This document shows, one piece after another, positions 13,034 through 44,682 of a DNA stretch of 50,115 nucleotides; position 1 is the stretch's first letter; each line of letters begins with the position of its first letter. The position numbers and the translations under genes were made by a program. Location: IMG/VR virus record IMGVR_UViG_3300012942_000059, positions 1 to 50,115 of that record; one strand, 5' to 3'. Below the pieces are notes generated by a model, which saw nothing but the letters and a program-made list of their open reading frames with translations, had not been told where the DNA came from and searched no databases. Source of the stretch: a virus (lineage: Duplodnaviria; Caudoviricetes).

Positions 13034-15136
13034 GTGGGAGAAATTTGGGTTAAGGAATTTACTGGTGGCCTTGACGCCCGGCGTATGCCGGAAACGTCGC
13101 CGGGCGGCACGCTCATCCAGGCATCCGACGGTCATATCACCAGCGGTGGGGAATTCGAGAAACGCGCCGCCTTCGTGTCGGAATTCGAACTGCCGCCGGG
13201 CACCGTCGGCATGGCCTACACCCGCACCGGCATCGTGGTTTTCGGAAGCGGCGAGGAACCGGCCGGGATACCGACCGGCGTGACCTATCAGCGCCTGCAG
13301 CATCCTGACGGCACGCCGACGCTGCTCTCCGTCCCGTCATTCGATCTCTATAAGGGCCTGATCTACGCGGTCGGCATTTTCTCCGACGGTAGCCGCCAGC
13401 ATTATTACGACGGCGTTCATGTCGACGACTGGTTCGACGGCCGCGCTCGCGCCACGTTCCAGGTCACGGCGGGCGTCGAAGACGCGGCTGTCGCCGCGTC
13501 CGGTTCGTTCACGATCACCGGCGGCTCGGAAGGCACGGGTAACGAAATCTCGTCGGTGACGGTCGACGGCGTGACGATCACGTCTGGCGCCGTCGCGTAC
13601 ACGACCGACAACGCCACGACCGCGCAGGCCGTCGCCGACGACATCAACAGCAACACGTCGACGCCCGATTATACGGCGACGGCGGATAGCGGCGTCGTCA
13701 CCATAACGGCGACCGACGCCGGCGCCGCATCGAACGATCTCGTTGTCGCGGCGACAGTCGGCGGCGACGTGACGGTCGGCGACGAAACGGCTCTTTCCGG
13801 CGGTTCCGACAACGCCACGTCGTCGCTCACATCGCTGACCGTCGATGGCGTCGACATCATTTTCAGTTCGATCGACTGGACCGGCAGCAACGCCGATACC
13901 GCCGCCGCTATCGCCGACGCCATCAACGCGGCGGCGACGAGTCCCGAATACGAAGCTATCTCAAACGGCGATCAGGTCGTCATCCTGGCCGGAGACGCGG
14001 GCTCCGACGCGAACGGCCGTGCGGTTGCGATCGGAACCGACGAGGGCTTCGGCGTGACGCCGGCAACCGGCCTGTCGATGGCGGGCGGCGTCGATCTCGA
14101 CGACACATTCGAGCCGGGCACGTTCGTCCGCACGATCAAGTCGAAGATGTATTCTGTCAGCGGGCCGGACATGCACTTTTCCGGCATCCAGCAGCCGACG
14201 AAATGGACGACCGACGCGGCCGGCGCAGGATTCGTCGATATGTCGAGCCAGTCGTCCGGTTCGGAGGAACTGGTCGCGTTGGCGCGCTATCAGGACAGCG
14301 TTGCGGTCTTCGCCGCCACGATCATTCAGATTTGGTACGTCGATCCCGACCCGACGTTGAACAAGCAATCGCAGTCGCTCAACAATACCGGGTCGGTTTT
14401 CCCGCGGTCGATCACGCAGTTCGGCGACAACGATCTCTTTTATCTCGACGAAAGCGGCCTGCGGTCGCTGCGCGCTCGCGACAGTTCGAACGCGGCTTCC
14501 ACGACGGACATCGGCGTGCCGGTCGACGACCTGGTGCGCGCCGCCAAGAAAGACTTGACGACGGACGATCGCCAGAACGTCATCGGCCTGATCGAACCGC
14601 AAACAGGCCGGTTCTGGCTCATCATCAAGGGTGAGATTTTCGTCTTTTCGTTCTTCAGCGGTGCGAAGGTCAGCGCATGGTCGAAGTACAATACGGTCGA
14701 TTCGGATGGCGACGATTTCGAGCCGACGGACGCAGTTGTTTTCGACAGGCGCGTCTACTTGCGCGCCGCCGACACGATCTATTGCTATGGCGGGACCGGA
14801 AGCGATCCCGTTTACGACGACACGGAAGCCGTCGCGCAAATCCCTTATCTTGACGGCAACGCGCCGTGGCAGACGAAGCATCTGGCGGGCATCGACGTCG
14901 CCGCGCAAGGCGCGTGGAAAATCTACGCTGCGATGAACCCGAACAACATCGAAGCGCAGGACAAGATCGGCATCTTTGCGAACGTCGTCTCCGACACGAC
15001 CTACGGCGCGGCGCGCATCCCGGCGGTCGGCCAGTCAACGCATTTCAGTCTGATCTTCAAGAGCCAGGGCGACGGTTACGCCAAGCTCGGCGCTTGCGTC
15101 ATCCATTTCACGAGCGACGAGGATCCTCAGAATTGA
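13034..15136 (+). CDS. Tail nozzle / packaged-DNA stabilization protein
   Basis: N-terminal FTGGLDAR, beta-propeller-like repeats, VSAWS motif, inserted Ala/Thr-rich duplicated domain; RBS AAAGGAG. Confidence 0.75.
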   Translation: MGEIWVKEFTGGLDARRMPETSPGGTLIQASDGHITSGGEFEKRAAFVSEFELPPGTVGMAYTRTGIVVFGSGEEPAGIPTGVTYQRLQHPDGTPTLLSVPSFDLYKGLIYAVGIFSDGSRQHYYDGVHVDDWFDGRARATFQVTAGVEDAAVAASGSFTITGGSEGTGNEISSVTVDGVTITSGAVAYTTDNATTAQAVADDINSNTSTPDYTATADSGVVTITATDAGAASNDLVVAATVGGDVTVGDETALSGGSDNATSSLTSLTVDGVDIIFSSIDWTGSNADTAAAIADAINAAATSPEYEAISNGDQVVILAGDAGSDANGRAVAIGTDEGFGVTPATGLSMAGGVDLDDTFEPGTFVRTIKSKMYSVSGPDMHFSGIQQPTKWTTDAAGAGFVDMSSQSSGSEELVALARYQDSVAVFAATIIQIWYVDPDPTLNKQSQSLNNTGSVFPRSITQFGDNDLFYLDESGLRSLRARDSSNAASTTDIGVPVDDLVRAAKKDLTTDDRQNVIGLIEPQTGRFWLIIKGEIFVFSFFSGAKVSAWSKYNTVDSDGDDFEPTDAVVFDRRVYLRAADTIYCYGGTGSDPVYDDTEAVAQIPYLDGNAPWQTKHLAGIDVAAQGAWKIYAAMNPNNIEAQDKIGIFANVVSDTTYGAARIPAVGQSTHFSLIFKSQGDGYAKLGACVIHFTSDEDPQN

Positions 15137-22195: not shown

Positions 22196-23317
22196 TCATT
22201 CTGCCGCCTCCAAAACGCCGTCGGAGATGCGGTCGACGGCTTCCCGTAAATCTTCGGGTTGGTATTTCGCATACACCTTTTCGACCATCGCGATCGTGTT
22301 ACCAAGAATCTTCGCGATCTTGAACAGAGACACGCCGCGTCGCGCCATGTGCGTCGCCGCCGTGTGCCGCAGGGTGTGTGGCGAGATGCCCGTCGCGTGC
22401 GGTTTCTGGCCGCGTTCGATCTTCTGTTTCGGCGCAAGCCCCGCCTCGATCACGGCCAACTGAATCGGCGCCCACACCGCGCCCTTGTTGTCGAGCACCA
22501 GGCAATCTTTCTTCTTGTCGAGACGTTCTTCGTACGCCCGTTTCAGCACCGGGAGAAGCGCCGCCGAGATCGGAACGTTGGCGCGACGCTTCTTTGTCTT
22601 CCGTCGGCCCGGTACGTCGAGCTCGATCATGCCCGTCTCGAAATCGACGCGGCTCCATGTCAGATCGAGCAACGCTTCCTTGCGCCCGGCCGTCTCGAGT
22701 GCCAGCCACAGAAACCGCTCCGCACGCGACAGGCGCGGCCCGCGCCGGAGCTTGGCCGCCGCGTCTAGCAGTCGTTGAATCTCGTCGTGCCGCAACCAAC
22801 GGTCGCGCGGATCGCCCGGCGCCGGCAAATCGTAGCGCTGGACGAACATCGGGTCGATCAGCTTGCGACGCGGGTCGGCGCAGAACTTGACGGCGGCCAG
22901 GAGGTAGGAAAGTTCCTTCGCGACAGTTTGCGGCTTGACCTTGCGTCCGAGTTTGCCGGTTGTCCGTTTCTCGACATACTCGTCAACCGCCATTTGCGAC
23001 AACTGCGGAACCAGCAACGCGCCGAAATGCGGCGTCAACTGTTTCCACGCCAAATCGGCGTTGTATGTGCCAGCGACCTTCTTCTGCACATGCAGCCGGT
23101 CGTAGGCCACCCACACGTCGGCCAGGGTGAGATCGGAGCCGAGCGGGCCGTCCTTCGGCCCCTGCCCTTCCGTCAAGAGCCAGTGCGCGAGGAAAAGGCG
23201 CGCTTCAGCCTCTTCTTTAACACTCGTTGATACGCGCTTTCCGATGCGGTTTTCGGTCCAGTGGACATACCAGATGCCGTTCGGGGCGCGTTTGAGGTAC
23301 GGGATTGATTTCGACAT
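22196..23317 (-). CDS. int: Tyrosine integrase
   Basis: ETAGRKEALL (R), KTKK, PHTLRHTAAT (HxxR), LGN, VYAKY catalytic Tyr region. Confidence 0.95.
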   Translation of the reverse strand: MSKSIPYLKRAPNGIWYVHWTENRIGKRVSTSVKEEAEARLFLAHWLLTEGQGPKDGPLGSDLTLADVWVAYDRLHVQKKVAGTYNADLAWKQLTPHFGALLVPQLSQMAVDEYVEKRTTGKLGRKVKPQTVAKELSYLLAAVKFCADPRRKLIDPMFVQRYDLPAPGDPRDRWLRHDEIQRLLDAAAKLRRGPRLSRAERFLWLALETAGRKEALLDLTWSRVDFETGMIELDVPGRRKTKKRRANVPISAALLPVLKRAYEERLDKKKDCLVLDNKGAVWAPIQLAVIEAGLAPKQKIERGQKPHATGISPHTLRHTAATHMARRGVSLFKIAKILGNTIAMVEKVYAKYQPEDLREAVDRISDGVLEAAE

Positions 23318-25837: not shown

Positions 25838-25886
25838 GACGCCCGACATTCCGAACATGCGAAACTGATTGGCCGGAGAGCCGCCC

Positions 25887-26636
25887 GTGACGACCACCTA
25901 CCAGCTTATGCAGGGCGACTGCCTTGATTTGATGCGTTTTATTCCGGACGCATCGATCGATCTCATATTGGCCGATTTGCCCTACGGCACGACGCGGAAT
26001 AAGTGGGATTCCGTCATCCCGCTCGACGCGCTTTGGAAACAATATTGGCGCGTCGTTAAGGTAAACGGCGCGGTAGTTCTTACGGCGCAGACGCCCTTCG
26101 ACAAGGCGCTCGGCGCGTCGTGCTTGCAGCATCTCAAATATGAATGGCTTTGGGAGAAGCCGCGTGCAACCGGCCATTTAAACGTTAAAAAACAGCCGAT
26201 GAAGGCGCATGAAAACGTGCTCGTTTTCTACCGCTCGCAATGTCTCTACAACCCGCAAATGACTCCCGGCGAGAAGTACGCTGTCGGCGGCGGTGCGTCA
26301 AAAATGGACAACTATGGCCGTTTTTCAACGGCCCGCGAAAACGACGGGGCTCTCCGCTACCCGCGTAGCATCCAGAAGTTTGCGACCGAAACCGGATTTC
26401 ATCCGACCCAAAAACCCGTCGCCCTGATGGAGTACATGATCCGGACCTACACGGACGCCGGCATGACGGTGCTCGATAATGCGATGGGCTCCGGCACTAC
26501 CGGCGTTGCCGCCGGGAACACGGGCCGGAGTTTCATCGGCATCGAAAAATACCCCGACATTTTCAAAATAGCCGAAGGCCGAATCAAACCGGCCTTTTCG
26601 TCCGGAATGACGCGCGACATAGGCGTATTCGCATGA
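25887..26636 (+). CDS. DNA amino-methyltransferase (N6_N4 family, beta class, DLPY)
   Basis: ADLPYG motif IV, HPTQKPVAL, VLDNAMGSGTTG motif I; ends IGVFA. Confidence 0.9.
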   Translation: MTTTYQLMQGDCLDLMRFIPDASIDLILADLPYGTTRNKWDSVIPLDALWKQYWRVVKVNGAVVLTAQTPFDKALGASCLQHLKYEWLWEKPRATGHLNVKKQPMKAHENVLVFYRSQCLYNPQMTPGEKYAVGGGASKMDNYGRFSTARENDGALRYPRSIQKFATETGFHPTQKPVALMEYMIRTYTDAGMTVLDNAMGSGTTGVAAGNTGRSFIGIEKYPDIFKIAEGRIKPAFSSGMTRDIGVFA

Positions 26637-30958: not shown

Positions 30959-31261
30959 ATGCCAAAGAAAGAGGCCGGGATCGGCCACAACAGCGACGGC
31001 GTTACGGAAACGTCACAGACCGTCGCGGCGGGTCAGCTCCGCGCCTTCATCGAACGTATCGAGCGGCTCGAGGAAGAGAAGAAGGCCCTGAGCGACGACG
31101 TCCGCGAAATCTACTCGGAAATGAAGGGCGTCGGCTTCGACACCAAGGCCGTCCGCACCATCATTCGTTGGCGCAAGAAGGACGCTGCGGAGCGGCAAGA
31201 AGAGGCGTCCATTCTTGAACTCTACGCCGGGGCGCTCGGCATGGTCGGCGTCTTCGGCTGA
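30959..31261 (+). CDS. GapR-like (DUF2312) DNA-binding protein
   Basis: [38 protein letters not shown]; ends VGVFG. Confidence 0.9.
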
Positions 31262-31452: not shown

Positions 31453-31997
31453 AACACGTAATGCTGGATTTGGAAACGCTCGGCACAATCCCCGGCGCTT
31501 CCGTCATCTCCATCGGAGCGGCCGAATTTGAACTCGACGGTTCGATCGGTCGCACCTTCAGCCAAAACATATCGGCAGCTTCTTGCCGGGAGATCGGTTG
31601 CGTCGAAGATCCCGCAACGCATGACTGGTGGGCCAAGCAGTCGAAAGAGGCGCAGGACCGGTTGACGAAGGGCCGGAAACACGTCGCCGAAGCCGCTGCG
31701 CTCTTTCACGCATGGTTCCAGAAATGCGGTGCCGACTTCGTATGGGGCAACGGCGCGACGTTCGACATCAGCTTGTGGGAGGCCATCTGCCGTAAGCTTG
31801 GCATCTCGGCGCCGTGGAAATTCTGGAACGTCCGCGACATGCGCACAGTGATCCATCTGTTCGATTTCGACGTGCGCGACATGAAACGTTCCGGCGTTCA
31901 CCACGACGCGCTCGACGATGTGAAATTCCAGATCACTTGCGTCAGCGCGGCGCTGAAGAAAGGCCGCGCGGGCGCGGTGGAAAGCGTCTTCGGATGA
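31449..31997 (+). CDS. DEDDh 3'-5' exonuclease
   Basis: MLDLETLG, WGNGATFD, HDALDD motifs; ends ESVFG. Confidence 0.9.
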   Translation: MKHVMLDLETLGTIPGASVISIGAAEFELDGSIGRTFSQNISAASCREIGCVEDPATHDWWAKQSKEAQDRLTKGRKHVAEAAALFHAWFQKCGADFVWGNGATFDISLWEAICRKLGISAPWKFWNVRDMRTVIHLFDFDVRDMKRSGVHHDALDDVKFQITCVSAALKKGRAGAVESVFG

Positions 31998-32224
31998 CGA
32001 TCGACGAAGCCCTGCGCGCCCGCGCCGGCGAGCGAATCAGCGTCACGGTATTCCCGGCTTCGTCGGGCTACCAGGCCAACATCTCGACGGACGGGAAGTC
32101 CTGGCGCGTCGAGATGGGCACCACCGCCGAGACGGCATTGAAAAAGGCGCTCGGCATTTTGCCGGGCGCATCGGGGCCGACGCTTGTCGCGCCCGAACCG
32201 ACATCAGGGAGCGTATTTGAATGA
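31994..32224 (+). CDS. Hypothetical protein
   Basis: ATGA coupling; ends GSVFE. Confidence 0.65.
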   Translation: MTIDEALRARAGERISVTVFPASSGYQANISTDGKSWRVEMGTTAETALKKALGILPGASGPTLVAPEPTSGSVFE

Positions 32225-32514: not shown

Positions 32515-32517
32515 CGC

Positions 32518-33807
32518 ATGACACAGCCAACAGCGTACTACAACGAGATCGATCCATTCGCGGCCGCGTGGCTGCGGGAACTCATCAAAGCCGGCCACAT
32601 CGCGCCGGGCGACGTGGATGAAAGGAGTATCGAGGATGTCAGCCCCGACGACTTGCGAGGCTACCGCCAGTGTCATTTCTTCGCCGGGATCGGTGTCTGG
32701 TCCCACGCGCTCCGCCGAGCCGGATGGCCCGACGATCGCGAAGTCTGGACCGGAAGCTGCCCGTGCCCGCCGTTCTCGGCCGCCGGCAAAGGAAGCGAGT
32801 GTCCTAGCTGCGGCGGAAAAAGCTGTCTCTCGCATCCTATCGTCACAGCCGGATGGATATGTCTCGATTGCGGCGACGAGTGGCGCGGCGACGATCGACA
32901 CCTTCTCCCCGAGTTCATCCGCCTCAAGGGCCAGTGCCGACCTTCAGTCGTCTTTGGAGAGCAGGTTGCGAGCCGCGACGGCCGGCTGTGGCTCTACACT
33001 TTACGCGCTGTCATGGAAGAAGCTGGATATGCCGTCGGGGCCGCCGATCTGTGCGCTGCGGGCATCGGCGCGCCGCACATCCGGCAACGGCTCTTCTTCA
33101 CTGAAGAGCGGTTGGCCGACGCCGGACGCCCAAGCGATGAATGTCTTCGCGGACCCGGAGAAGCATCAGGAGCGCCGCGATCGGCTGAAAGCGAAGCATG
33201 GAAACGGCAATGGAGCGGGACTGCCGATAGGACAGGCGGCGCATCTCGCGGGATGGCCCACTCCGACGGTCGGGAACGCCTCCGGTTCGCAGATGGCGAA
33301 AGACGCCTCATCGACGGGCAAGCGGCCGGACGGTTCGAAGGCTACCGTGAGCCTGCCGCAAGTGGCGATGACGGCGGGATGGCGCAGTCCGAACACCGTG
33401 GATGCGAAGGGCGGGAACCGGCTCGGCGAAGGCCAGGTGCAACTGTGTCATCAATCTCTCTTGGCAGGGTGGCCGACGCCCATGGCCGGATCGCCGGGGA
33501 AACCGGGCCGCTACAATCCGGCGGGGAACAACGACAGCAGCCGGAAAACGGTCGATCTCTGCGCTACCCACGGCCCGGCCCGACTAACGGCATCTGGCGA
33601 GATGCTGACTGGCTCTTCTGCCGGGATGGAAAGTGGCGGCCAGTTGAACCCGGCACATTCCCGCTGGCTCATGGGTCTCCCGCCAGAGTGGGACGACTGC
33701 GCGGTTATGGCAATGCAATCGTTGCCCCGCTCGCGCAAACGTTCATCGAAGCGTTCCTCGACGCCGAAGCCGACGAACGTCTTCGACTGACGGGGGTGTT
33801 CGCATGA
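32518..33807 (+). CDS. C5-cytosine DNA methyltransferase, large (alpha) polypeptide
   Basis: YNEID, FFAGIG (I), GSCPCPPFS (IV), GEQV (VI), PHIRQR (VIII), LRGYGNAIV (X); ends TGVFA. Confidence 0.9.
32618..33790 (+). CDS. Nested alternative-frame polypeptide (beta subunit / TRD repeats of the C5 MTase); true start uncertain
   Basis: Open +1 frame with four GW(P/R)(T/S)P repeats and motif IX-like [16 protein letters not shown]; ends TNVFD. Confidence 0.75.
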
Positions 33808-34112
33808 CAAAAGTCGTCATCACGGACCACGCGCTGATCCGGTGGCTCGAGCGCGCCCGCGGCTTCGATCTTGAAATCTTCCGCGACGCCCTGGCCGAGA
33901 TTGCGCAGCCCTACGCCGATATCCGCGTCAAACAGGCCGAGATCGGCGGGCTGTGGTTCATCTTTCACGAAGACCGGCTGGTCACCGTCACGCCAGAGAA
34001 GCCGCGCCGCGCGCAAATGCTTCGTCATGATCGGGAATATTCGAACGGCACGGACGCGCCGCGCGAACGGGCGTCGTGGCAAATGAAGAAACGGCGGAAG
34101 GCGCATAAATGA
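33804..34112 (+). CDS. Hypothetical phage protein
   Basis: ITDHALIRWLER motif; coupled on both sides. Confidence 0.7.
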   Translation: MTKVVITDHALIRWLERARGFDLEIFRDALAEIAQPYADIRVKQAEIGGLWFIFHEDRLVTVTPEKPRRAQMLRHDREYSNGTDAPRERASWQMKKRRKAHK

Positions 34113-35140
34113 TTGAGATCATCCACGGCGATTGCCTCGCCGCGCTGGAATTGCTGCCGTCCGAAAGCGTCCACTGCATCGTCACGTCGCCGCCTTATTG
34201 GGGCCTTCGCGACTATGGCGTCGACGGCCAGATCGGCCTCGAACAATCGCTTGGCGAGCATATCGATCGGCTTGTAGAAGTGTTCGGCGAGGCCCGACGC
34301 GTTCTTCGAAAAGACGGAACGCTATGGCTCAACTACGGCGATGCCTACGCCAGCGCGCCGAACGGGCGTTCCGCCGCCGACACAAAAACACTCGGCAACG
34401 ATGATCGAACTTTCCGCGACAAACCGATCTCGACCGTCGGCCCCGTTCGCAAGTCATTCCGGCGAGACGGCGGTGCAGTCTTGCCAGTGATCCGCGCAGC
34501 AACGCCGGAACTGAAGGCGAAAGACCGCATGATGCTGCCCGCGCGTGTTGCGATCGCGCTGCAGGAATCTGGCTGGTGGATCCGCGACGAGATCATATGG
34601 CACAAGCCCAACCCGATGCCGATCAGCGTTCGCGACCGTACCACACCCGCGCACGAAATGCTGTATTTGTTGTCGAAGTCGGCTCGGTATTACTACGATC
34701 AAGAGGCGATCAAGGAGCCGATCGCCGCAGCGTCGAGAAAGCGGTACGCGCAGGAAACTCTGAATTCACAGACAGGCGGGTTTAAGCAGGAACAGTACGA
34801 AAGCGGCATCACCGGGCAGCGCGCCCGTTCCCGCCGGCCGGCGGAAATACTTAAAACGCTCGCAGGGCAGGAGAAACGCAACAGGCGCAGCGTCTGGACG
34901 ATTGGAACGAAGCCGTTCGCCGACGCCCACTTCGCCACCTTCCCGCCCGATCTTATACGGCCCTGTATCCTGGCCGGGTGCCCTGAAGGCGGTATCGTGC
35001 TCGACCCGTTCTTCGGCGCCGGCACGACCGGTCTTGTCGCTCGCGAACTAGGCCGACGCTGCATCGGGATCGAATTGAACCCTGCTTATATCGAGATCGC
35101 GAAAAAGCGTCTCGGCCTCGCCTACGGGGTGTTCGCATGA
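34109..35140 (+). CDS. DNA amino-methyltransferase (N6_N4 family, SPPY, likely m4C)
   Basis: VTSPPYW, HFATFP, VLDPFFGAGTT motifs; ends YGVFA. Confidence 0.92.
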   Translation: MIEIIHGDCLAALELLPSESVHCIVTSPPYWGLRDYGVDGQIGLEQSLGEHIDRLVEVFGEARRVLRKDGTLWLNYGDAYASAPNGRSAADTKTLGNDDRTFRDKPISTVGPVRKSFRRDGGAVLPVIRAATPELKAKDRMMLPARVAIALQESGWWIRDEIIWHKPNPMPISVRDRTTPAHEMLYLLSKSARYYYDQEAIKEPIAAASRKRYAQETLNSQTGGFKQEQYESGITGQRARSRRPAEILKTLAGQEKRNRRSVWTIGTKPFADAHFATFPPDLIRPCILAGCPEGGIVLDPFFGAGTTGLVARELGRRCIGIELNPAYIEIAKKRLGLAYGVFA

Positions 35141-37368
35141 CGCTCGAGATCGACTTCGAGACCCGTTCCGCCGTCGATCTGAAGAAGCGCGGCGTCTACA
35201 ACTATATGGCATCCGAGACAACCGAACCGCTAATGGCGTCCTACTCGATTAACCAGAATCCGGTTAATCGCTGGCGACCGCCGGCGCCGTGCCCGCCCGA
35301 TATCGTCGAGCATGTCACGGCTGGAGGCATGATTTCGGCCCATAACGCTGCGTTCGAACGGTTGCTGTGGCAGTACGTCCTGACGCCGCGCTACGGATGG
35401 CCCGCTGTGAAAACGGAGCAATTCCGCTGCACGGCGGCCACGGCGGCGGCCATGTCGCTGCCGCGTGCGCTCGGCGATCTCGGCGCGGCGCTCGATCTCA
35501 CGATCCAGAAGGACAAGGAAGGCTCGCGGCTCATCCGGAAATTCTCGATCCCGCGCCGCGTCCGCAAGGGCGAAGAGCCGGGCGTCTACTTCAATCAGCC
35601 GCACGAGCACCCGGAAGAATTCGAGCGCTTCCACGACTACTGCGATGATGATGTGCGCACGGAAGCCGGTGCCGACCGCCGCATGGTTCCGCTGTCGGCT
35701 GACGAGCAGGACGTCTATGTGCTCGGGGAGATCATCAACGACCGCGGCATCCGCATCGATCGACGATCGGCACGCGCCGCGCTGCGGCTGGCGGAGAAGG
35801 CCAAGCTGAAGCTTGACCGCGAATTGCGGCTTGTGACCGGCGGTTATGTTCCGTCGACGACGCAGCCGGGCAAGCTGGTCGAGTGGGTCGAGAGCCAAGG
35901 CGTGCCGATGTCGTCGGCGGCCAAGGCCGAGCTCGAGGCGTTGCTGGAACTGGACGATCTGCCGGCGAACGTCCGCCGCGCGATAGAGATACGCCAGGAA
36001 GCGGCGAAGACATCCGTGTCGAAGTTGAAAGCGATGCTGGACCGCGCTTCCGACGATGGCCGCGTGCGCGGCACGTCGATCTACCACGGCGCCGGCACGG
36101 GCCGTTTCCAGTCGGTCGGCGTTAATTTCTCGAATCTTCCGCGGCCCCGTCGCGAGTTCGACGACGCGCATCTCGACCGCGCGACGCTGTTCAAAGCATT
36201 CCGGCACGAGGATCCGGACTTCCTGCAGTTCCTATACGGCGACACGCTCGGCCGCCCGCTGCATCTCGTCTCCGACGCTATACGCGGCTTCATCATGGCC
36301 GCGCCCGGTCACGATCTTGTACAGGCCGACTATTCCGGCATCGAAGGCGCCGTCATCGCATGGTCGTCGGGCGAGCATTGGAAGGTGCGGGCGATGCACG
36401 AGATCATCGCCGATCCCGATCTGCCGGATATGTATCGCCGGACAGCCGCCGGTATTCTCGGCTTGCCGGTCGACGTCGTGACGAAGAAACATTGGGCGCG
36501 TCAAGCCGTTGGCAAGGTGAGCGAGCTCGCCCTTGGCTTCGGCGGCGGTGTGTCGGCCTTCCATTCGATGTCGAAGAACTACGGCGTCAAGCTCGATCCG
36601 CTGTTCGGGCCGGTGTGGGCGACCGCCGACGAAGAACGCCGCGAACGTGCGGTCAAGCGCTACGAGGCGAACCTGAAGCGCGGCAATGAAAAGACCGACG
36701 AACTGTCGCGCGAAGCATGGTTGGCTTGCGAGATCATCAAGGTCGGCTGGCGCGAGACGAACCCGGCCATAAAGAAAGGCTGGCACACTCGCGAAGACGC
36801 CGTGCGCGACGCGATTCGCAACCCGGGAACGCAGTTCACGGCGCTAAAGTGTTCCTACCTTGTCGCCCGCGGCTTCCTGTGGTGCCGTCTGCCGAGCGGC
36901 CGTTGCCTGGCCTACGGCTCGCCGCGGCTGCGTGACCAGGTATGGGCGGAAGTCAAACTCGACGACGGGGCATGGTGCGACGCCGAAGTGATGGACCGCG
37001 AGACGGCCGAGCGCATGGCTGTGCGCGGAACGTGTCGAATCAACGGTTCGACGTCGCCTTCGATCTCGGCGCTCGGCGTCAATTCCGTCACGAAGAAATG
37101 GACGCGCTCGCATCTCTACGGCGGCTTGTTGGCCGAGAACGACACCCAGGCCATCGCCCGCGATCTGCTCGTCAACGGCATGCGCAAGGCCGAAGCGGCC
37201 GGTTACCCGATCATCGCTCACGTCTACGACGAGATGATCGCCGAAGTGCTGCGCGGAACCGGGGATCTGGCAGCGTTCGAAAAGCTGATCTGCGAATTGC
37301 CGGAATGGGCCGCGGGGATGCCTTTGACGGCGGGCGGATGGCGGGGAAAGCGGTACCGCAAGGACTGA
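35137..37368 (+). CDS. Family A DNA polymerase with 3'-5' exonuclease domain
   Basis: IDFET and AHNAAFE exo motifs; TGR; motif A ADYSGIE; motif B RQAVGKVSELALGFGGG; motif C HVYDE. Confidence 0.93.
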   Translation: MTLEIDFETRSAVDLKKRGVYNYMASETTEPLMASYSINQNPVNRWRPPAPCPPDIVEHVTAGGMISAHNAAFERLLWQYVLTPRYGWPAVKTEQFRCTAATAAAMSLPRALGDLGAALDLTIQKDKEGSRLIRKFSIPRRVRKGEEPGVYFNQPHEHPEEFERFHDYCDDDVRTEAGADRRMVPLSADEQDVYVLGEIINDRGIRIDRRSARAALRLAEKAKLKLDRELRLVTGGYVPSTTQPGKLVEWVESQGVPMSSAAKAELEALLELDDLPANVRRAIEIRQEAAKTSVSKLKAMLDRASDDGRVRGTSIYHGAGTGRFQSVGVNFSNLPRPRREFDDAHLDRATLFKAFRHEDPDFLQFLYGDTLGRPLHLVSDAIRGFIMAAPGHDLVQADYSGIEGAVIAWSSGEHWKVRAMHEIIADPDLPDMYRRTAAGILGLPVDVVTKKHWARQAVGKVSELALGFGGGVSAFHSMSKNYGVKLDPLFGPVWATADEERRERAVKRYEANLKRGNEKTDELSREAWLACEIIKVGWRETNPAIKKGWHTREDAVRDAIRNPGTQFTALKCSYLVARGFLWCRLPSGRCLAYGSPRLRDQVWAEVKLDDGAWCDAEVMDRETAERMAVRGTCRINGSTSPSISALGVNSVTKKWTRSHLYGGLLAENDTQAIARDLLVNGMRKAEAAGYPIIAHVYDEMIAEVLRGTGDLAAFEKLICELPEWAAGMPLTAGGWRGKRYRKD

Positions 37369-37548: not shown

Positions 37549-37749
37549 ATGAAGCGCAAGAAGACCTACCGGAAGAAGTACGGCCATCCGACGGAGATGC
37601 TAGCCGTCCGCGTGCCGGCTCCGTTGCATCGGGCCGTCAAGTCGCGCGCCAAGCGGGAGAAGAAGCCGAAGTCCGAAACGGTCGTCGGTATCCTGGCCGC
37701 TGCGCTCGCTCCGGAGGCTCCTGCCGAGAAAGAGAGCGTGTTCGAATGA
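37549..37749 (+). CDS. Ribbon-helix-helix (Arc-like) DNA-binding protein
   Basis: RBS GAGGA; MLAVRVPAPLHRAVKSRAKREKKPKSETVVGILAAAL; ends ESVFE. Confidence 0.7.
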   Translation: MKRKKTYRKKYGHPTEMLAVRVPAPLHRAVKSRAKREKKPKSETVVGILAAALAPEAPAEKESVFE

Positions 37750-38379: not shown

Positions 38380-38585
38380 CTTTCGACGAAGCCCGCGCCA
38401 CCTATCCTCGCTGGTCGTTCGGCGTCTATGCGCTGGAACCGGGCGCGGGCGTCACGCTCGAGATACTGACCGAAGACGGCCAGTCCTTTTCATTCGAGGC
38501 CGCGACGCTAGACGACGCGCTATCGGCGGCGTTCCCGCCGGCGCCGGAAGAACCGCAACCCGAGCCAAGCGACGTGTTTGCATAG
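38376..38585 (+). CDS. Hypothetical protein
   Basis: ATGA coupling; ends SDVFA. Confidence 0.65.
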   Translation: MTFDEARATYPRWSFGVYALEPGAGVTLEILTEDGQSFSFEAATLDDALSAAFPPAPEEPQPEPSDVFA

Positions 38586-40625: not shown

Positions 40626-40941
40626 GCCGCAGGGCCACAAACCGGCCAACTCAGGCAGGGCCGCCAGGCGCAAGCCGGTGCGGTCCGCCATCCCATCCGT
40701 GCGGGAATTCTTCGACTTGCTGGACCGCGACGAGCGCAGCGTTGGCGAGATCGCCGCCCGCGCCGGCGCGCACGAAGTCACGATCTGCATGTGGCGCGGC
40801 GGCCATCGGTCACCGCAGCTATCGACATTCGAGAACATGCTGGAAGTGATGGGTTATCGTCTTGCCATCGTTCCGCTGTCCGGGATGGCGCACGACACCG
40901 ACGACACTTCTGGACAAACGGAATGCGGCGCGTCAGACTGA
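40618..40941 (+). CDS. XRE-family HTH protein
   Basis: SVGEIAARAGAHEVTICMWRGGHRSPQLSTFENMLEVMGY. Confidence 0.75.
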   Translation: MGRPQGHKPANSGRAARRKPVRSAIPSVREFFDLLDRDERSVGEIAARAGAHEVTICMWRGGHRSPQLSTFENMLEVMGYRLAIVPLSGMAHDTDDTSGQTECGASD

Positions 40942-40981
40942 GCGTTCCCGCAAAATCCTGACGACCATGACGCGAGGGACC

Positions 40982-43099
40982 GTGAACTCCGAAACCGGCA
41001 ATCCTTTCCTGCGCTTCCACGCGCTCGGCTACACACGTATCGTACCAGTGACGCCGCCAAAGTGCGAAGTGTCGCCCCGTTCGACATTCGCGAAACGCCT
41101 AGCCGCAGCCAAAGGCGATCCGAAGAAAGATCCCCGCGGCAAGGCGCCCGGCGTGAAGGGCGACGATGGTTGGCGCGGTATCGACTTCACCAAGGTCGAA
41201 GCCGAATTGCGCGATCTCGACATATGGCAGCGCATGGGCGCGTCGGTCGGCCTGAAGACGGGTCGCGGCCTGGCCTTCGTCGACGTCGATACGCTGAAGG
41301 CTGAATGGGCCGCGGCGGTCAAAGCCATTTTCGAGAAACATCTCGGCACGAACATATTCTGGCGCGTCGGCAACTACCCGAAAGCCGGGTTCATGCTCTT
41401 GACCGACGAGGACTACGTTTACCATTGCGTCGCTTTTGGCGATCGCGACGAGCACGGCCGGCTGACAAGCCGCGTCGAGATATTGTGCGAAGGCCGCCAA
41501 TTCGTCGCGCACGGCATCCACCCCGCCACCGGGAAACCCTACCGCTGGCCGCAAGGCATACCGCCGCGCAAGGACCTGGTTTACGTGCCGGCGGCCAAGC
41601 TCGACGCCATTCTGCAGGAAATAGCCGAAGCGATGCCGCAGGCCGAGCCGGTCAAGCACGAAGGCGCGCAATCCGACGATCCAGTCGATCCCGAAAAGCT
41701 GAAGGGCGATCCGGTCCTGGTCGAGCGCGCGGTAAAAGCCATGCGCAACACGGCTGGCCGGGACGAATACGTTGCGGTCGGCTACGCGCTCAAAGGCGCC
41801 TTGCCCGACGATCCGGCCCTTGCCTTCGAACTCTATGCCGACTGGTGCGACAGATGGGAAGAAGGCGAGAACGACCCCGATGTGGTTGCGGCGGAATGGG
41901 CGCGCATGACGCTGCCGCCGCGCATCGGCGCCGATTGGCTCTACGCGCGAGCACACGAATGGAGCGGCGGTGCGTTCACGCCGCATTTCGATCCGGTCGC
42001 CGCGGCGCAGGTGAATGACGCCGCGGCCGAATCGCTGTTCCCGCCCGAAGAGAAGAAGCAGCGCAAGTTCGATATCCTGTCATTCGGCCAAGCTGCCGAC
42101 GCCGCGCTCGGCGACGTCTCGGCGCCGCTCATCAAGGGACTGTTGGACCAGGGCGCGATGACGGTGCTGTATGGCCCCTCCAACGTCGGCAAGACATTCG
42201 TTGCGATGGATATCGGCTATCACATCGCGGCCGGCACGGAATACGCCGGCATGCGCGTCACCAAGGGCGCGGTGCTGTACGTCGCGGCCGAAGGCGGGCG
42301 CGGCGCCAAGCGCCGGGTCAGAGCGCTGCGGGAGAAATACGGCGCCGACGACGTGCCGTTCTTCCTGTTGCCGTCCAGCGTGGACTTGCGGCGGCCTGAT
42401 GCGGATCTCCGACCGTTGATCTCGGCCATTCGCGAGATGATGGCGACGCTGCGCGAGCGTGGTTTCGATCTGGTGCTGATTGTCATCGATACGCTGTCGC
42501 GCGCCATGGCCGGCGGCGATGAAAACTCGTCGGTCGACATGGGCCACATTGTCACGCATTTCGACGCGCTGCGGGCCGCGACTTCGGCCCACTTGTTGGT
42601 TGTGCATCACAGCGGCAAGAACGTCGCCATGGGCGCGCGCGGGCATTCGCTGCTACGCGCGGCCACGGACACGGAGATAGAAATCGGCGAAGGCGCGATC
42701 GAAGTCACCAAGCAACGCGATCTGGATAAGTCCTGGTCGTCTGGCTTCGTCTTGGAGACGCGGGTTTTGGGTGTGGACGGTGACGGCGATCCTGTGACGT
42801 CGTGCACGGTGCGGCTATGCGGCAAGGATACGGTCTCTGCGCCCGCGCCGCGCGCCCCTACGGCACGGGAAGAGGTTGCCCTCGCCGCCGTTGAGGCGCT
42901 GCAGGCTAGTAGCAGGGACGGTGAGGCGGGCGTTTCCGCTGCCGAACTATGCGCGTATATGGTTTTGCAAGGGGACAATTTGTCCGACAAGAACGCACGT
43001 TATCTACTCGCCAGCTTGATAGAGAAGCGGCTTATCGAGAAGATCGGGCGCGGCCGGTATAGGGTTGTCGAGCGCAAAGAAGATAGCGTTTTCGAGTAA
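40982..43099 (+). CDS. Primase-helicase (Prim-Pol, PriCT-2-like, AAA_25/RepA-type SF4 helicase)
   Basis: GKAP, VDVD, QFVAHGIHPATG primase motifs; GPSNVGKT; VIDTLSR; HHSGK..GARGHS; ends DSVFE; GTG start with RBS GAGGG (ATG 40967 alternative). Confidence 0.92.
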   Translation: MNSETGNPFLRFHALGYTRIVPVTPPKCEVSPRSTFAKRLAAAKGDPKKDPRGKAPGVKGDDGWRGIDFTKVEAELRDLDIWQRMGASVGLKTGRGLAFVDVDTLKAEWAAAVKAIFEKHLGTNIFWRVGNYPKAGFMLLTDEDYVYHCVAFGDRDEHGRLTSRVEILCEGRQFVAHGIHPATGKPYRWPQGIPPRKDLVYVPAAKLDAILQEIAEAMPQAEPVKHEGAQSDDPVDPEKLKGDPVLVERAVKAMRNTAGRDEYVAVGYALKGALPDDPALAFELYADWCDRWEEGENDPDVVAAEWARMTLPPRIGADWLYARAHEWSGGAFTPHFDPVAAAQVNDAAAESLFPPEEKKQRKFDILSFGQAADAALGDVSAPLIKGLLDQGAMTVLYGPSNVGKTFVAMDIGYHIAAGTEYAGMRVTKGAVLYVAAEGGRGAKRRVRALREKYGADDVPFFLLPSSVDLRRPDADLRPLISAIREMMATLRERGFDLVLIVIDTLSRAMAGGDENSSVDMGHIVTHFDALRAATSAHLLVVHHSGKNVAMGARGHSLLRAATDTEIEIGEGAIEVTKQRDLDKSWSSGFVLETRVLGVDGDGDPVTSCTVRLCGKDTVSAPAPRAPTAREEVALAAVEALQASSRDGEAGVSAAELCAYMVLQGDNLSDKNARYLLASLIEKRLIEKIGRGRYRVVERKEDSVFE

Positions 43100-43114: not shown

Positions 43115-43350
43115 TTTCCTAGCAAACTCAGTAACGCCTTGAATCCATTACATAAAATTTTCCTAGCAAATGAAATCGCGTATGTCGTTTTCGCATCGTT
43201 TGCTAGGAAATGCTAGGCGTTTGCTAGGAAGCCGAAACGCCAATAAAATCAAGTGTTTGGCCCGTTTGCTAGGAAATGCTAGGAACGCTAGGAACGATCA
43301 AGGCTCATTTGCTAGGTTTGCTAGGCCCCCTATAAGAAGGGCCTAGCAAA
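43115..43350. repeat. GCTAGG iteron array, candidate replication origin
   Basis: About 11 copies of (TTT)GCTAGG(AA) in both orientations in AT-rich non-coding DNA after the primase-helicase; IHF-consensus-like AATCAAGTGTTTG at 43247-43259. Confidence 0.75.
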
Positions 43351-43402
43351 CCCGTAAGCCCGGTGTTCTGGCATTGGAATTAATAGCAATGGCCAACGCC
43401 AC

Positions 43403-43437
43403 AAAAAGAAACGGCCGCCCTATCGCGGCGGCCGTTC
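43403..43437 (-). terminator. Intrinsic terminator of the leftward early operon
   Basis: aacggccgcc...ggcggccgtt hairpin followed by TTTCTTTTT on the minus strand. Confidence 0.7.
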
Positions 43438-43536
43438 AATCATTCGGGCGATGCCATAGACAATCTGTCCAACGGCTCGAGGCAAGGCAATGGCCGATAG
43501 AACGGCCAGGACGGCGAGCGCCGCAATTGCGATCAT
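43420..43536 (-). CDS. Small membrane peptide (38 aa)
   Basis: MIAIAALAVLAVLSAIALPRAVG; ATGA coupling. Confidence 0.5.
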   Translation of the reverse strand: MIAIAALAVLAVLSAIALPRAVGQIVYGIARMIERPPR

Positions 43537-43850
43537 TTTGTCAGATGCTTGGAAATAGGATCCGGAAACGGACGCCGGTGCAGCGCGGCGAGATTCTGCG
43601 AACAAACGGCCGCAAGGATCGCCTTGCCCGTGTTGTGTCGCGTTCCGCTCGCGCAAGGGCAAGGCGGCGGTGTCGGCGCGGCGCGGCTAAGCAACGCGTC
43701 GTTTTTCGCCCGTATCGCTTTCAGTACGGCCGCGCCATGCTCGGCTATGTTTTCGGGCGTGCGCGGCTTGCGGCGAAGCTTGGCGACCCGGGTGCCGAGA
43801 TCAGGGTAAACAGGGCCGAAAGGCTCGGGAATGATAAATGGTGCGTTCAT
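43533..43850 (-). CDS. Hypothetical early protein
   Basis: RBS GGAG before MNAPFIIPEP. Confidence 0.55.
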   Translation of the reverse strand: MNAPFIIPEPFGPVYPDLGTRVAKLRRKPRTPENIAEHGAAVLKAIRAKNDALLSRAAPTPPPCPCASGTRHNTGKAILAAVCSQNLAALHRRPFPDPISKHLTK

Positions 43851-43945
43851 GGTTCTTCTCCGTTGTCTGTTCCGGCCATATCCGGCCGCTGGTGCGCGTA
43901 TGGGCGTCCGGCGGTGTCTTCCGTCATTCCGGACGCCAACGCGCG

Positions 43946-44047
43946 TCACAAGCCATTTGTGGCGATTGTCCAGGCGTAGAATCCGATCATGGCGCAAAAG
44001 GCCAGCATGACGATGAATTCCAGCCCGTCGCGGAAGAGATCACGCAT
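43946..44047 (-). CDS. Small membrane peptide (33 aa)
   Basis: MRDLFRDGLEFIVMLAFCAMIGFYAWTIATNGL; RBS GAGGA. Confidence 0.45.
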   Translation of the reverse strand: MRDLFRDGLEFIVMLAFCAMIGFYAWTIATNGL

Positions 44048-44051
44048 TGGC

Positions 44052-44315
44052 CTATTCCTCGTTGAACGCGTCGGCGATTTCTTGCCAATCGACAAGATTC
44101 ATTCGCTCGCGCGCTGCGGTTTTGGAGAGCGGAGACCAATCCTCGTCGGTCTGCATGTCGGGCGTGCCGTGCGGAAATGCCTCCCGGCAAAACGACTCGG
44201 CCGTTGCGGCCGTGAAAGGCCGTTGCGCGCACATGGCGCGATAGGCCGCCTCGTCATTGTTGACGTAAAGCGCGACGTTCCAAGTCTCGTAGTTTTTCCA
44301 ACCCTGGTAGGCCAT
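44052..44315 (-). CDS. Hypothetical early phage protein (GWxNYETWNVAL family)
   Basis: RBS AGGAG; GWKNYETWNVALY...VDWQEIA. Confidence 0.75.
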   Translation of the reverse strand: MAYQGWKNYETWNVALYVNNDEAAYRAMCAQRPFTAATAESFCREAFPHGTPDMQTDEDWSPLSKTAARERMNLVDWQEIADAFNEE

Positions 44316-44370
44316 GGTGAAAGTCTCCTGTTTCGGTTTGTCGTTGGTGTCGGTCGTCATTCGGGACGCG

Positions 44371-44682
44371 CTAGGCGCGGCCTTCAGCTTTGGCGATCGC
44401 GGCGAGAACCATCGCTCGGCCCTTTTTCACATTGTCGCGCCATTCCTGCGTTGCGCCGTAGGGCTGCGGCGCGGCGATGAATTTCAGCGCGGCGAGCATG
44501 TCAGGCGCTGCGGCCAAAAGGTTTGCGTAGGGCTCGGTGAGATTTCCGAGCGCGGAAACCCTACAAACGATAGAGCCGCCTTCACCGCCGAAATCTTCGT
44601 ATATGTCGAACGGGTTGCACGACACGCCGTTTGGCGCTTTGCGCGTGAATTTGCGGCGCAGTACGTAATCGAGATTGAACAT
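44371..44682 (-). CDS. Hypothetical early protein
   Basis: ANLLAAAPDMLAALK...AAIAKAEG motif common in phage early genes. Confidence 0.75.
   Translation of the reverse strand: MFNLDYVLRRKFTRKAPNGVSCNPFDIYEDFGGEGGSIVCRVSALGNLTEPYANLLAAAPDMLAALKFIAAPQPYGATQEWRDNVKKGRAMVLAAIAKAEGRA

Follow-up and report, generated by a model that had tools for sequence, protein, structure and literature searches.

The window analysed here, a stretch of 50,115 bases that makes up the complete virus record IMGVR_UViG_3300012942_000059 (Duplodnaviria; Caudoviricetes) with its direct terminal repeats, carries within its replication and modification module a C5 cytosine methyltransferase gene in which two long open reading frames (ORFs) are nested on the plus strand. 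The outer ORF, in frame A (32518..33807), encodes a chain of 429 residues, here called alpha, which has the large catalytic domain of a C5 cytosine methyltransferase, and its frame is open for 430 codons from stop to stop (32515-33804). The inner ORF lies in the +1 frame (frame B, 32636..33790) wholly within frame A, covering 1155 of the 1290 nucleotides (nt) of alpha, and gives a beta chain of 384 residues when read from a conserved ATG; counted from an earlier ATG at 32618 to the stop at 33790 it has 390 codons, and from stop to stop 422 (32522-33787). The two stops are 17 nt apart and both frames terminate in a V-F-x end, NVFD-TGA in frame B (33776-33787) and GVFA-TGA in frame A (33793-33804), the stop of the latter overlapping the ATG of the next gene at 33804.

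Frame A holds motif I (FFAGIGVW, residues 54-61), motif IV (79-91), motif VI (FGEQV, 146-150), motif VIII (185-194) and motif X (396-406, at 33703-33735 on the plus strand). Frame B holds four GW(P/R)(T/S)P modules (33110-33124, 33251-33265, 33377-33391 and 33467-33481) and a segment resembling motif IX (33644-33691). All the sequence features listed in an earlier note on this DNA, namely the frame A motifs, the +1 frame, the repeats, the IX-like segment, an insert and the two ends, were located in the sequence. Along the DNA the elements follow the canonical order, with motifs I to VIII in frame A, the variable region and the IX-like segment in frame B and motif X again in frame A, an order that may point to descent from an ordinary single-frame gene.

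On its sequence and modelled fold, alpha is the catalytic chain of a C5 cytosine methyltransferase. In 49 aligned alpha sequences the residues F55, A56, G57 and G59 of motif I are invariant, as are S80, C81, P82, C83, F86 and S87 of motif IV, which include the P-C dipeptide with the catalytic cysteine; the same holds for G147, E148, Q149 and V150 of motif VI, an E-Q-V variant of the E-N-V type, for R189 and R191 of motif VIII and for G398 and N399 of motif X. Alpha matches phrog_363 (E 5.5e-72) and, over residues 127-194 only, the Pfam family PF00145 (DNA_methylase; 24.3 bits against a cut-off of 22), and residues 43-194 match M.HhaI weakly. A structure search with the alpha model placed M.HhaI first (Z 13.2, root-mean-square deviation 2.9, alignment over 162 of 327 residues); numerous further C5 enzymes came next at Z 10-13, and the 162 aligned residues approximate the size of the C5 large domain. 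Folded alone, alpha is confidently modelled at residues 1-200 and in a C-terminal helix (403-424), with a predicted local distance difference test score (pLDDT) below 50 at residues 206-357 and weak values (40-55) over the conserved stretch 359-398. The linker between motifs VIII and X (residues from about 200 to 357) is unconserved, with an amino-acid identity of 0.05-0.3, and is followed by a strongly conserved segment of about 40 residues immediately ahead of motif X (33595-33675). The single-chain arrangement, with a target recognition domain (TRD) and motif IX between motifs VIII and X of one polypeptide, was not found here, and frame A contains no IX-like segment.

The beta chain has a family of its own. 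A frame B alignment of 49 sequences, from which five loci with irregular ends (L016, L019, L031, L034 and L078) had been dropped, reveals a conserved core with invariant G119 and W127 in a block around residues 107-149, together with a C-terminal segment in which Q336, L337, P339, W344, L345, P349 and W352 are invariant. This latter segment (L-x-P...W-L...P..W) is the IX-like one and ends about four codons ahead of motif X of alpha. Beta matches phrog_1008 (E 2e-27) and phrog_31772 (E 5.6e-36), both named 'DNA methyltransferase', and at least 7641 of the 8000 candidates scored are relatives at E <= 1e-3. The number of W-P-T-P modules ranges from 2 to 5 in the 49 loci and from 1 to 9 in 119 database proteins, where it correlates with protein length (r = 0.70); the variation in repeat number among homologues that the earlier note had proposed to look for is thus seen in both sets.

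The two-frame layout is kept across relatives. In a scan of IMG/VR, 575 of 589 candidate stretches were confirmed as relatives of frame A, and among the best 80, with 42-57% identity to alpha, both frames are open in 78 (at least 300 codons in frame A and at least 240 in the +1 frame), with in-frame stops only in L007 and L009. The +1 frame usually starts 60-120 nt past the frame A start in these loci, and the longest +2 ORF is much shorter than the +1 frame. For a second, independent sample each bacterial species was represented by one genome and a frame B peptide pattern served to pick candidates, of which 271 stretches were confirmed; the best 80 of these all have both an A and a B match, B lying at A+1 in every case, and 77 have both ORFs open. 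Frame B usually ends some tens of nt ahead of the frame A stop (median 26 nt in the bacterial-genome loci). This second sample covers Alpha-, Beta- and Gammaproteobacteria, Desulfovibrio and one metagenome-assembled genome of Flavobacteriaceae. The earlier note had held that its proposal would fall if homologues did not keep the +1 frame open, and the viral and bacterial-genome loci alike keep it open.

Named phages present the same picture. A tblastn comparison with 50,697 phage records gave matches to A in 283 and to B in 231, at the same places. In Burkholderia phage vB_RY5 the A match begins at 43313 and the B match at 43431, and the coding sequence annotated there, as in its relatives, is the one in the B frame (43311-44495 in PV072764.1, 'putative metabolic enzyme'). 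Conversely, in Salmonella phage epsilon15 (AY150271.2 34020-35189) the annotated 'cytosine methylase' is in the A frame, with the B match at +1 to it. Paenibacillus phage Xenia, at 47% G+C, also has the layout, its +1 frame encoding a protein of 234 residues with the same blocks and with GGGAGG upstream; this Xenia beta protein matches 105 phage records, including Lactobacillus phage Lc-Nu and gene 58 of Escherichia coli phage N15. In EBPR siphovirus 2 (L003, JF412297.1 19594-22089) gp44, a 'methylase' of 832 residues, is matched by alpha in two pieces over about 2.5 kb; the beta match there (50% identity) falls within the distal part, in the +1 frame, and the alpha frame has a large extra insert.

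Frame B appears to have its own translation start. A Shine-Dalgarno-like (SD-like) AAGGAG (32622..32627, plus strand) lies 8 nt upstream of the ATG at 32636 and is made from the frame A Arg-Ser codons AGG AGT; the beta start falls with its AAGGAG inside alpha codons 36-40. For 54 non-redundant viral loci, obtained by reducing the set to sequences of less than 85% identity with the window included, the ATG column of 32636 is kept in 38, of which 32 have an SD-like site; 9 of the 16 loci without this ATG have an SD-like site and a start a few codons downstream. The Arg-Ser codon pair reads AGGAGY in 22 of the 54 sequences and CGGAGY in 10, and the ATG at 32618 is not conserved. Position 32636 is taken as the likely start of beta, giving the chain of 384 residues. 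The leader that follows is open in 42 of the 49 aligned loci, and in the remaining 7 the start has probably moved a few codons downstream.

Measured by codon position in the frame A alignment of the non-redundant loci and in the frame B alignment of 49 sequences, conservation passes along the gene from A-driven to dual, B-driven, dual and again A-driven. In the first zone (32636..32935, plus strand, as are those that follow) motifs I and IV of alpha lie over a frame B leader of about 95 residues without constraint of its own, and between 32636 and 32815 the third position of frame A, which is the second of frame B, is the least conserved (0.46-0.61 against 0.7-0.97). In the first dual-coding zone (32938..33110), where motifs VI to VIII of alpha are superimposed on the first conserved beta block (residues 107-149), all three codon positions stand at 0.57-0.98. 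The B-driven zone (33110..33565) contains the four modules, at which the third position of frame B is lowest (0.37-0.43 against 0.5-0.7), and in frame A the open, unconserved linker, which can hardly be aligned. The second dual-coding zone (33566..33715) places the IX-like segment of beta over the conserved pre-X segment of alpha, with codon positions at 0.6-0.93 and an amino-acid identity to the window of 0.55-0.90 in both frames. Downstream (3') of 33716 the third position of frame A is lowest again and the gene is A-driven.

Shuffle controls agree with this pattern. When synonymous codons were shuffled so as to keep the alpha protein and its codon usage, the length of the +1 ORF in the window was reached in 1 of 200 shuffles, and 0 of 200 reached the observed +1 ORF in 33 of the 54 non-redundant loci; the +2 frame equalled the shuffle mean. 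When the beta protein was kept instead, all 49 loci had frame A open throughout the B-driven middle, compared with a mean of 11% of 300 shuffles, and the third frame had as many stops as the shuffled sequences. The comparison shows purifying selection on both frames, acting on one or the other in separate zones and on the two together in two zones, with both ORFs kept open: the gene is, by these sequence criteria, a conserved dual-coding one and not the product of chance or error. The claim of the earlier note that both nested frames code for protein thus gains strong comparative support from the open frames, the codon positions, the shuffles and the start.

A structure prediction for the heterodimer, which had been proposed as a check in the earlier note, gave an interface score (ipSAE) of 0.89, 0.90 and 0.87 in three runs for alpha with beta; three controls gave 0.00 at best. 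Agreement between the runs amounts to 48% of contacts or more, with a partner pLDDT of 57 or above. Of 80 solved complexes 58 attain the score mark used, as do 2 of 110 mismatched pairs; this calibration applies only approximately, since the alignments supplied were our own. Contacts of low expected error join residues 167-202 and 352-420 of alpha to residues 99-143 and 312-363 of beta, so that the predicted interface corresponds to the stretches encoded by the two dual-coded zones, with the IX-like segment of beta modelled against motif X of alpha.

Taken together, these results make it probable, from sequence comparison and modelling, that two same-strand ORFs of almost equal extent at this locus encode the two subunits of an alpha/beta C5 methyltransferase, with beta bringing the variable modules. 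Alpha, translated from 32518 and bearing motifs I, IV, VI, VIII and X, would contribute the large domain for S-adenosylmethionine binding and catalysis. Its central stretch of about 150 residues would be a sequence-unconstrained, probably disordered linker; we propose that this exists only because translation has to continue as far as motif X. Beta would start from its own AAGGAG and the ATG at 32636, pass through the unconstrained leader of about 95 residues and then present a conserved block, W-P-T-P modules in varying number and the motif IX-like helix. The two chains would assemble, beta taking the role of the small, target-recognition domain that alpha lacks, and the enzyme would presumably methylate the phage DNA as an orphan, anti-restriction methylase.

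Several considerations weigh against this reading. We infer the translation of both frames from comparative sequence evidence and the formation of a heterodimer from modelling, and the assignment of beta as recognition subunit, like the biological role, is likewise an interpretation. The 49-locus sets used for the codon positions, the beta-keeping shuffles and the leader shuffles had been pre-selected for two open frames, and the loci are related, so the shuffle counts are not independent probabilities. The leader of beta is open in 44% of shuffles in any case, and the evidence from each locus for the upstream start is therefore modest. The complex score expresses the confidence of a model and is not a measurement. 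Beta alone folds poorly (mean pLDDT 57.6, with residues 1-49 below 50), and a Foldseek comparison of its model with the PDB returned no match at E <= 0.001. At the level of sequence, beta gave one chance row at E 0.7 against solved structures, its profile reached a best E of 1.1 against the PDB, and a Pfam search returned 0 families for beta and, at E <= 10, 0 PF00145 matches for 49 members of the alignment. The label 'motif IX' consequently depends on a short resemblance, on the position ahead of motif X and on modelled contacts, since beta matches neither a solved structure nor Pfam, and the assignment is best described as one by resemblance, position and model. A search of NCBIfam gave a chance row only, and the ESM Atlas matches to beta were unnamed viral clusters.

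Natural forms with a beta-like region in frame with a C5 catalytic domain were also sought. No Pfam domain was found on the 120 beta relatives of near length among the matches listed, nor was PF00145 found on 13 longer ones, and ten long near-length relatives carry no Pfam family; this is weak evidence because alpha itself barely reaches PF00145. In called proteins of 680-1100 residues (P0123-P0128 and P0133, and likewise L031) the beta frame continues without a stop into the next gene. Domains joined to the beta-like region in such longer proteins are PF01555 (N6/N4 methylase), PF00476 (DNA polymerase A), PF00176/PF00271 (SNF2 helicase), PF12705 (PD-(D/E)XK) and PF05869 (Dam), and these may be real fusions or run-ons of the gene caller.

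The alternative that best survives these data would have beta translated and bound to alpha as an accessory (a regulator, a DNA-binding clamp or a scaffold), with alpha as a minimal methyltransferase whose pre-X segment serves as recognition element. The strong conservation of that segment of about 40 residues is what one would then expect, and the lack of detectable homology of beta to any known TRD or to PF00145 agrees with it. However, the segment is poorly ordered when alpha is modelled alone (pLDDT 40-55) and forms part of the beta interface in the complex model, all 80 genome loci have beta together with alpha, and the fold alignment of alpha with M.HhaI takes in only about half of the latter; we regard a purely accessory beta as unlikely.

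A single polypeptide could in principle arise if the ribosome changed frame twice by programmed shifting, leaving A for B past motif VIII and returning to A ahead of motif X, a route for which the canonical order of the elements along the DNA and the end of the IX-like segment some four codons before motif X would both be convenient. This route does not fit the conservation found beyond the supposed shift sites, beta being conserved upstream of the first (over motifs VI to VIII of alpha) and alpha upstream of the return site (over the IX-like segment of beta), nor the conserved SD-like site and ATG of beta about 470 nt upstream, nor the fact that both frames are open far beyond the need of two shifts; we hold a double shift to be highly improbable.

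Genes of high G+C often carry long alternative ORFs, and frame B might accordingly be untranslated, its openness and conservation being by-products of base composition, of frame A constraint or of a constraint on the nucleic acid itself. Shuffled alpha genes do still give +1 ORFs of about 100-250 codons, and the conservation of frame B is passive in its N-terminal third. Yet between 33110 and 33565 it is the third position of frame B that is least conserved, over an unconserved frame A, and the layout persists at 47% G+C. The invariant residues and variable number of peptide modules of the beta family, the SD-like site with its ATG, the V-F-x ends and the complex score relative to controls also speak against a silent frame B, which we find hardly credible. 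That a normal methyltransferase gene has been broken by indels, as a pseudogene or through sequencing error, is suggested by nothing more than the appearance of a canonical motif order over two frames and is refuted by the comparative data, the same layout recurring in 78 of 80 viral and 77 of 80 bacterial loci, in independent assemblies and in named phage records, with in-frame stops confined to L007 and L009, so that its probability is practically nil.

The two-subunit arrangement favoured here has partial precedents. M.EcoHK31I, a natural heterodimer from E. coli to which the earlier note had likened this gene, needs both of its chains (PMC2836561): alpha holds motifs I to VIII, X and the TRD, and beta, which carries motif IX, is encoded entirely within the alpha gene but in a different frame. 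The two systems share the nested second chain: in our two samples (78 of 80 loci and 77 of 80) the alpha gene completely encloses a second ORF read in a different frame, a likeness of layout. The analogy holds with one difference, which concerns the TRD. M.EcoHK31I keeps it in alpha next to a small beta; here the variable repeat region is constrained only in the beta frame, beta with its 384 residues is almost as long as alpha, and each chain is unconstrained where the other is constrained. M.AquI is a two-subunit C5 methyltransferase split in the variable region, encoded by consecutive genes with a short overlap; it resembles the present case in having two polypeptides, divided at that region, which must assemble, and differs from it in that its genes are not nested. 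The multispecific C5 methyltransferases of Bacillus phages (SPR and phi3T type) have tandem modules between motifs VIII and IX, and the number of these varies. Those modules belong to the same polypeptide as the catalytic domain, whereas here they lie in a separate, overlapping ORF and have a W-P-T-P core. As the earlier note suggested, the repeats of beta may be recognition modules giving several specificities.

A few GenBank records already have both ORFs annotated. In E. coli phage K1ind1 ORF28, a 'putative Mte8-like protein', is annotated inside ORF29, a 'putative C-specific methylase', and in Paenibacillus phage Leyra LEYRA_62 lies inside LEYRA_61, both being named 'DNA-cytosine methyltransferase'. 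The accessible parts of the literature list such ORFs by name alone (PMC5582158) or give two cytosine methyltransferases in a table (PMC6070908) and do not discuss overlap or a subunit role there. Full-text literature searches, which took in few subscription journals and neither supplements nor REBASE, found no paper describing the nested beta ORF or a subunit role for it; those on Valp1 (PMC11054321) and on Burkholderia KL1/AH2 (PMC3483164) proved to have no bearing on the question. The protein collection holds a protein of 253 residues from frame B of the window itself (P0001), with an internal Met start, and in PHROGs the frames of this single gene are placed in two sets of families with no relation to each other.

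A wider proposal, on which we find the evidence evenly balanced, is that these genes form a widespread phage and prophage clade of obligate alpha/beta C5 methyltransferases with an overlap of about 0.7-1.5 kb, present in Alpha-, Beta- and Gammaproteobacteria, Desulfovibrio and phages of Firmicutes, and including those of epsilon15 and N15. Each chain would contain a throw-away spacer, the dual zones would encode the parts in contact, the number of modules (1-9) would set or multiply specificity and the beta frame would express the out-of-frame HNH homing elements of methylase genes. If the two-chain reading is true, annotation that assigns a single protein to each gene overlooks half of the enzyme. 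Beta proteins in the thousands are recorded as hypothetical, 'Mte8-like' or even 'putative metabolic enzyme', and which frame is annotated, A or B, differs between genomes. If both chains are made, few same-strand gene overlaps of double-stranded DNA phages would equal this one in length and breadth of conservation, and it would be a natural case of selection keeping two proteins over more than 1 kb. Expression of a codon-optimized alpha ORF would then destroy beta and might show no activity, and the variable number of modules would offer a tractable way into C5 target recognition.

The V-F-x ends of the two frames belong to a tag that recurs in the window. Such an end before the stop is found in 12 of 290 ORFs of at least 50 codons on the plus strand, compared with 1 of 306 on the minus strand, with the consensus [G/S/D/N]-V-F-[A/G/E/D/Q]-stop between about 24.5 and 46.3 kb; examples on the plus strand are at 26625-26636, 31250-31261, 31986-31997, 32213-32224, 35129-35140, 37738-37749, 38574-38585 and 43088-43099. 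Several tagged ORFs have no overlapping downstream ATG, and the valine codon uses all four third bases, which argues for selection on the peptide. Both nested frames are tagged in the two related loci examined, L005 (PGVFG and NVFD) and L008 (DVFG and NVFG), as they are in the window, and these loci have 3 V-F-x ends in 4.6 kb and 6 in 4.1 kb respectively; the beta of a further relative, P0005, ends in V-F-x too. The argument of the earlier note from the double tag is thereby strengthened, the tagging of both frames being consistent with the end of frame B being treated as a real gene end.

In two relatives, L005 (2639-3016) and P0005, an HNH-type element of about 135 codons follows the IX-like segment of beta, in frame with it, and in P0005 a repeated P-x-E-W-x-D-C-A stretch flanks the element. 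Frame A is open across the element in both and resumes before motif X. The HNH piece also matches Komagataeibacter phage phiKX1 at 13454-13819, just after the alpha match of that phage, and the inside of a Staphylococcus phage 'DNA-cytosine methyltransferase'. In actinophage DNA methylase genes a 'hidden' HNH insertion has been described out of frame, and how it might be translated was posed as a question (PMC11855218, in its accessible part). The elements of L005 and P0005 resemble it, by description only, in that they read as HNH only outside the annotated methylase frame, which stays open. They differ in being in frame with beta, no second methylase subunit being described in that part of the actinophage report. 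The beta frame could be a route for the translation of out-of-frame HNH elements in methylase genes, and would give a concrete possible answer to that question.

The insert that the earlier note had placed after motif IV of alpha is present as a zinc-ribbon-like CxxC...CxxC stretch (32800-32871, plus strand; residues 95-118 of alpha and about 55-79 of beta) and proves lineage-specific rather than general: the region is a gap in about 91% of the 54 non-redundant sequences, and among the 49 aligned loci only the window and L005 have the insert in common. The stretch is modelled at moderate confidence in both frames, as strands in alpha and as a helix and hairpin in beta. The insert-encoded parts of the two chains are listed as contacting in the complex model, the alignment there being too shallow to judge by.

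The phage itself is of a temperate type, with a G+C content of about 62% and an integrase on the minus strand (22199-23317). It also encodes a family A DNA polymerase (35137-37368), a primase/helicase (40862-43099), exonucleases, an endolysin and tail genes. Two further DNA methyltransferases, both of phrog_67 (25869-26636, E 7e-69; 34109-35140, E 3.5e-78), bring the number of methylases encoded by the phage, with the nested-frame one, to three, and both carry a V-F-A tag at their end.

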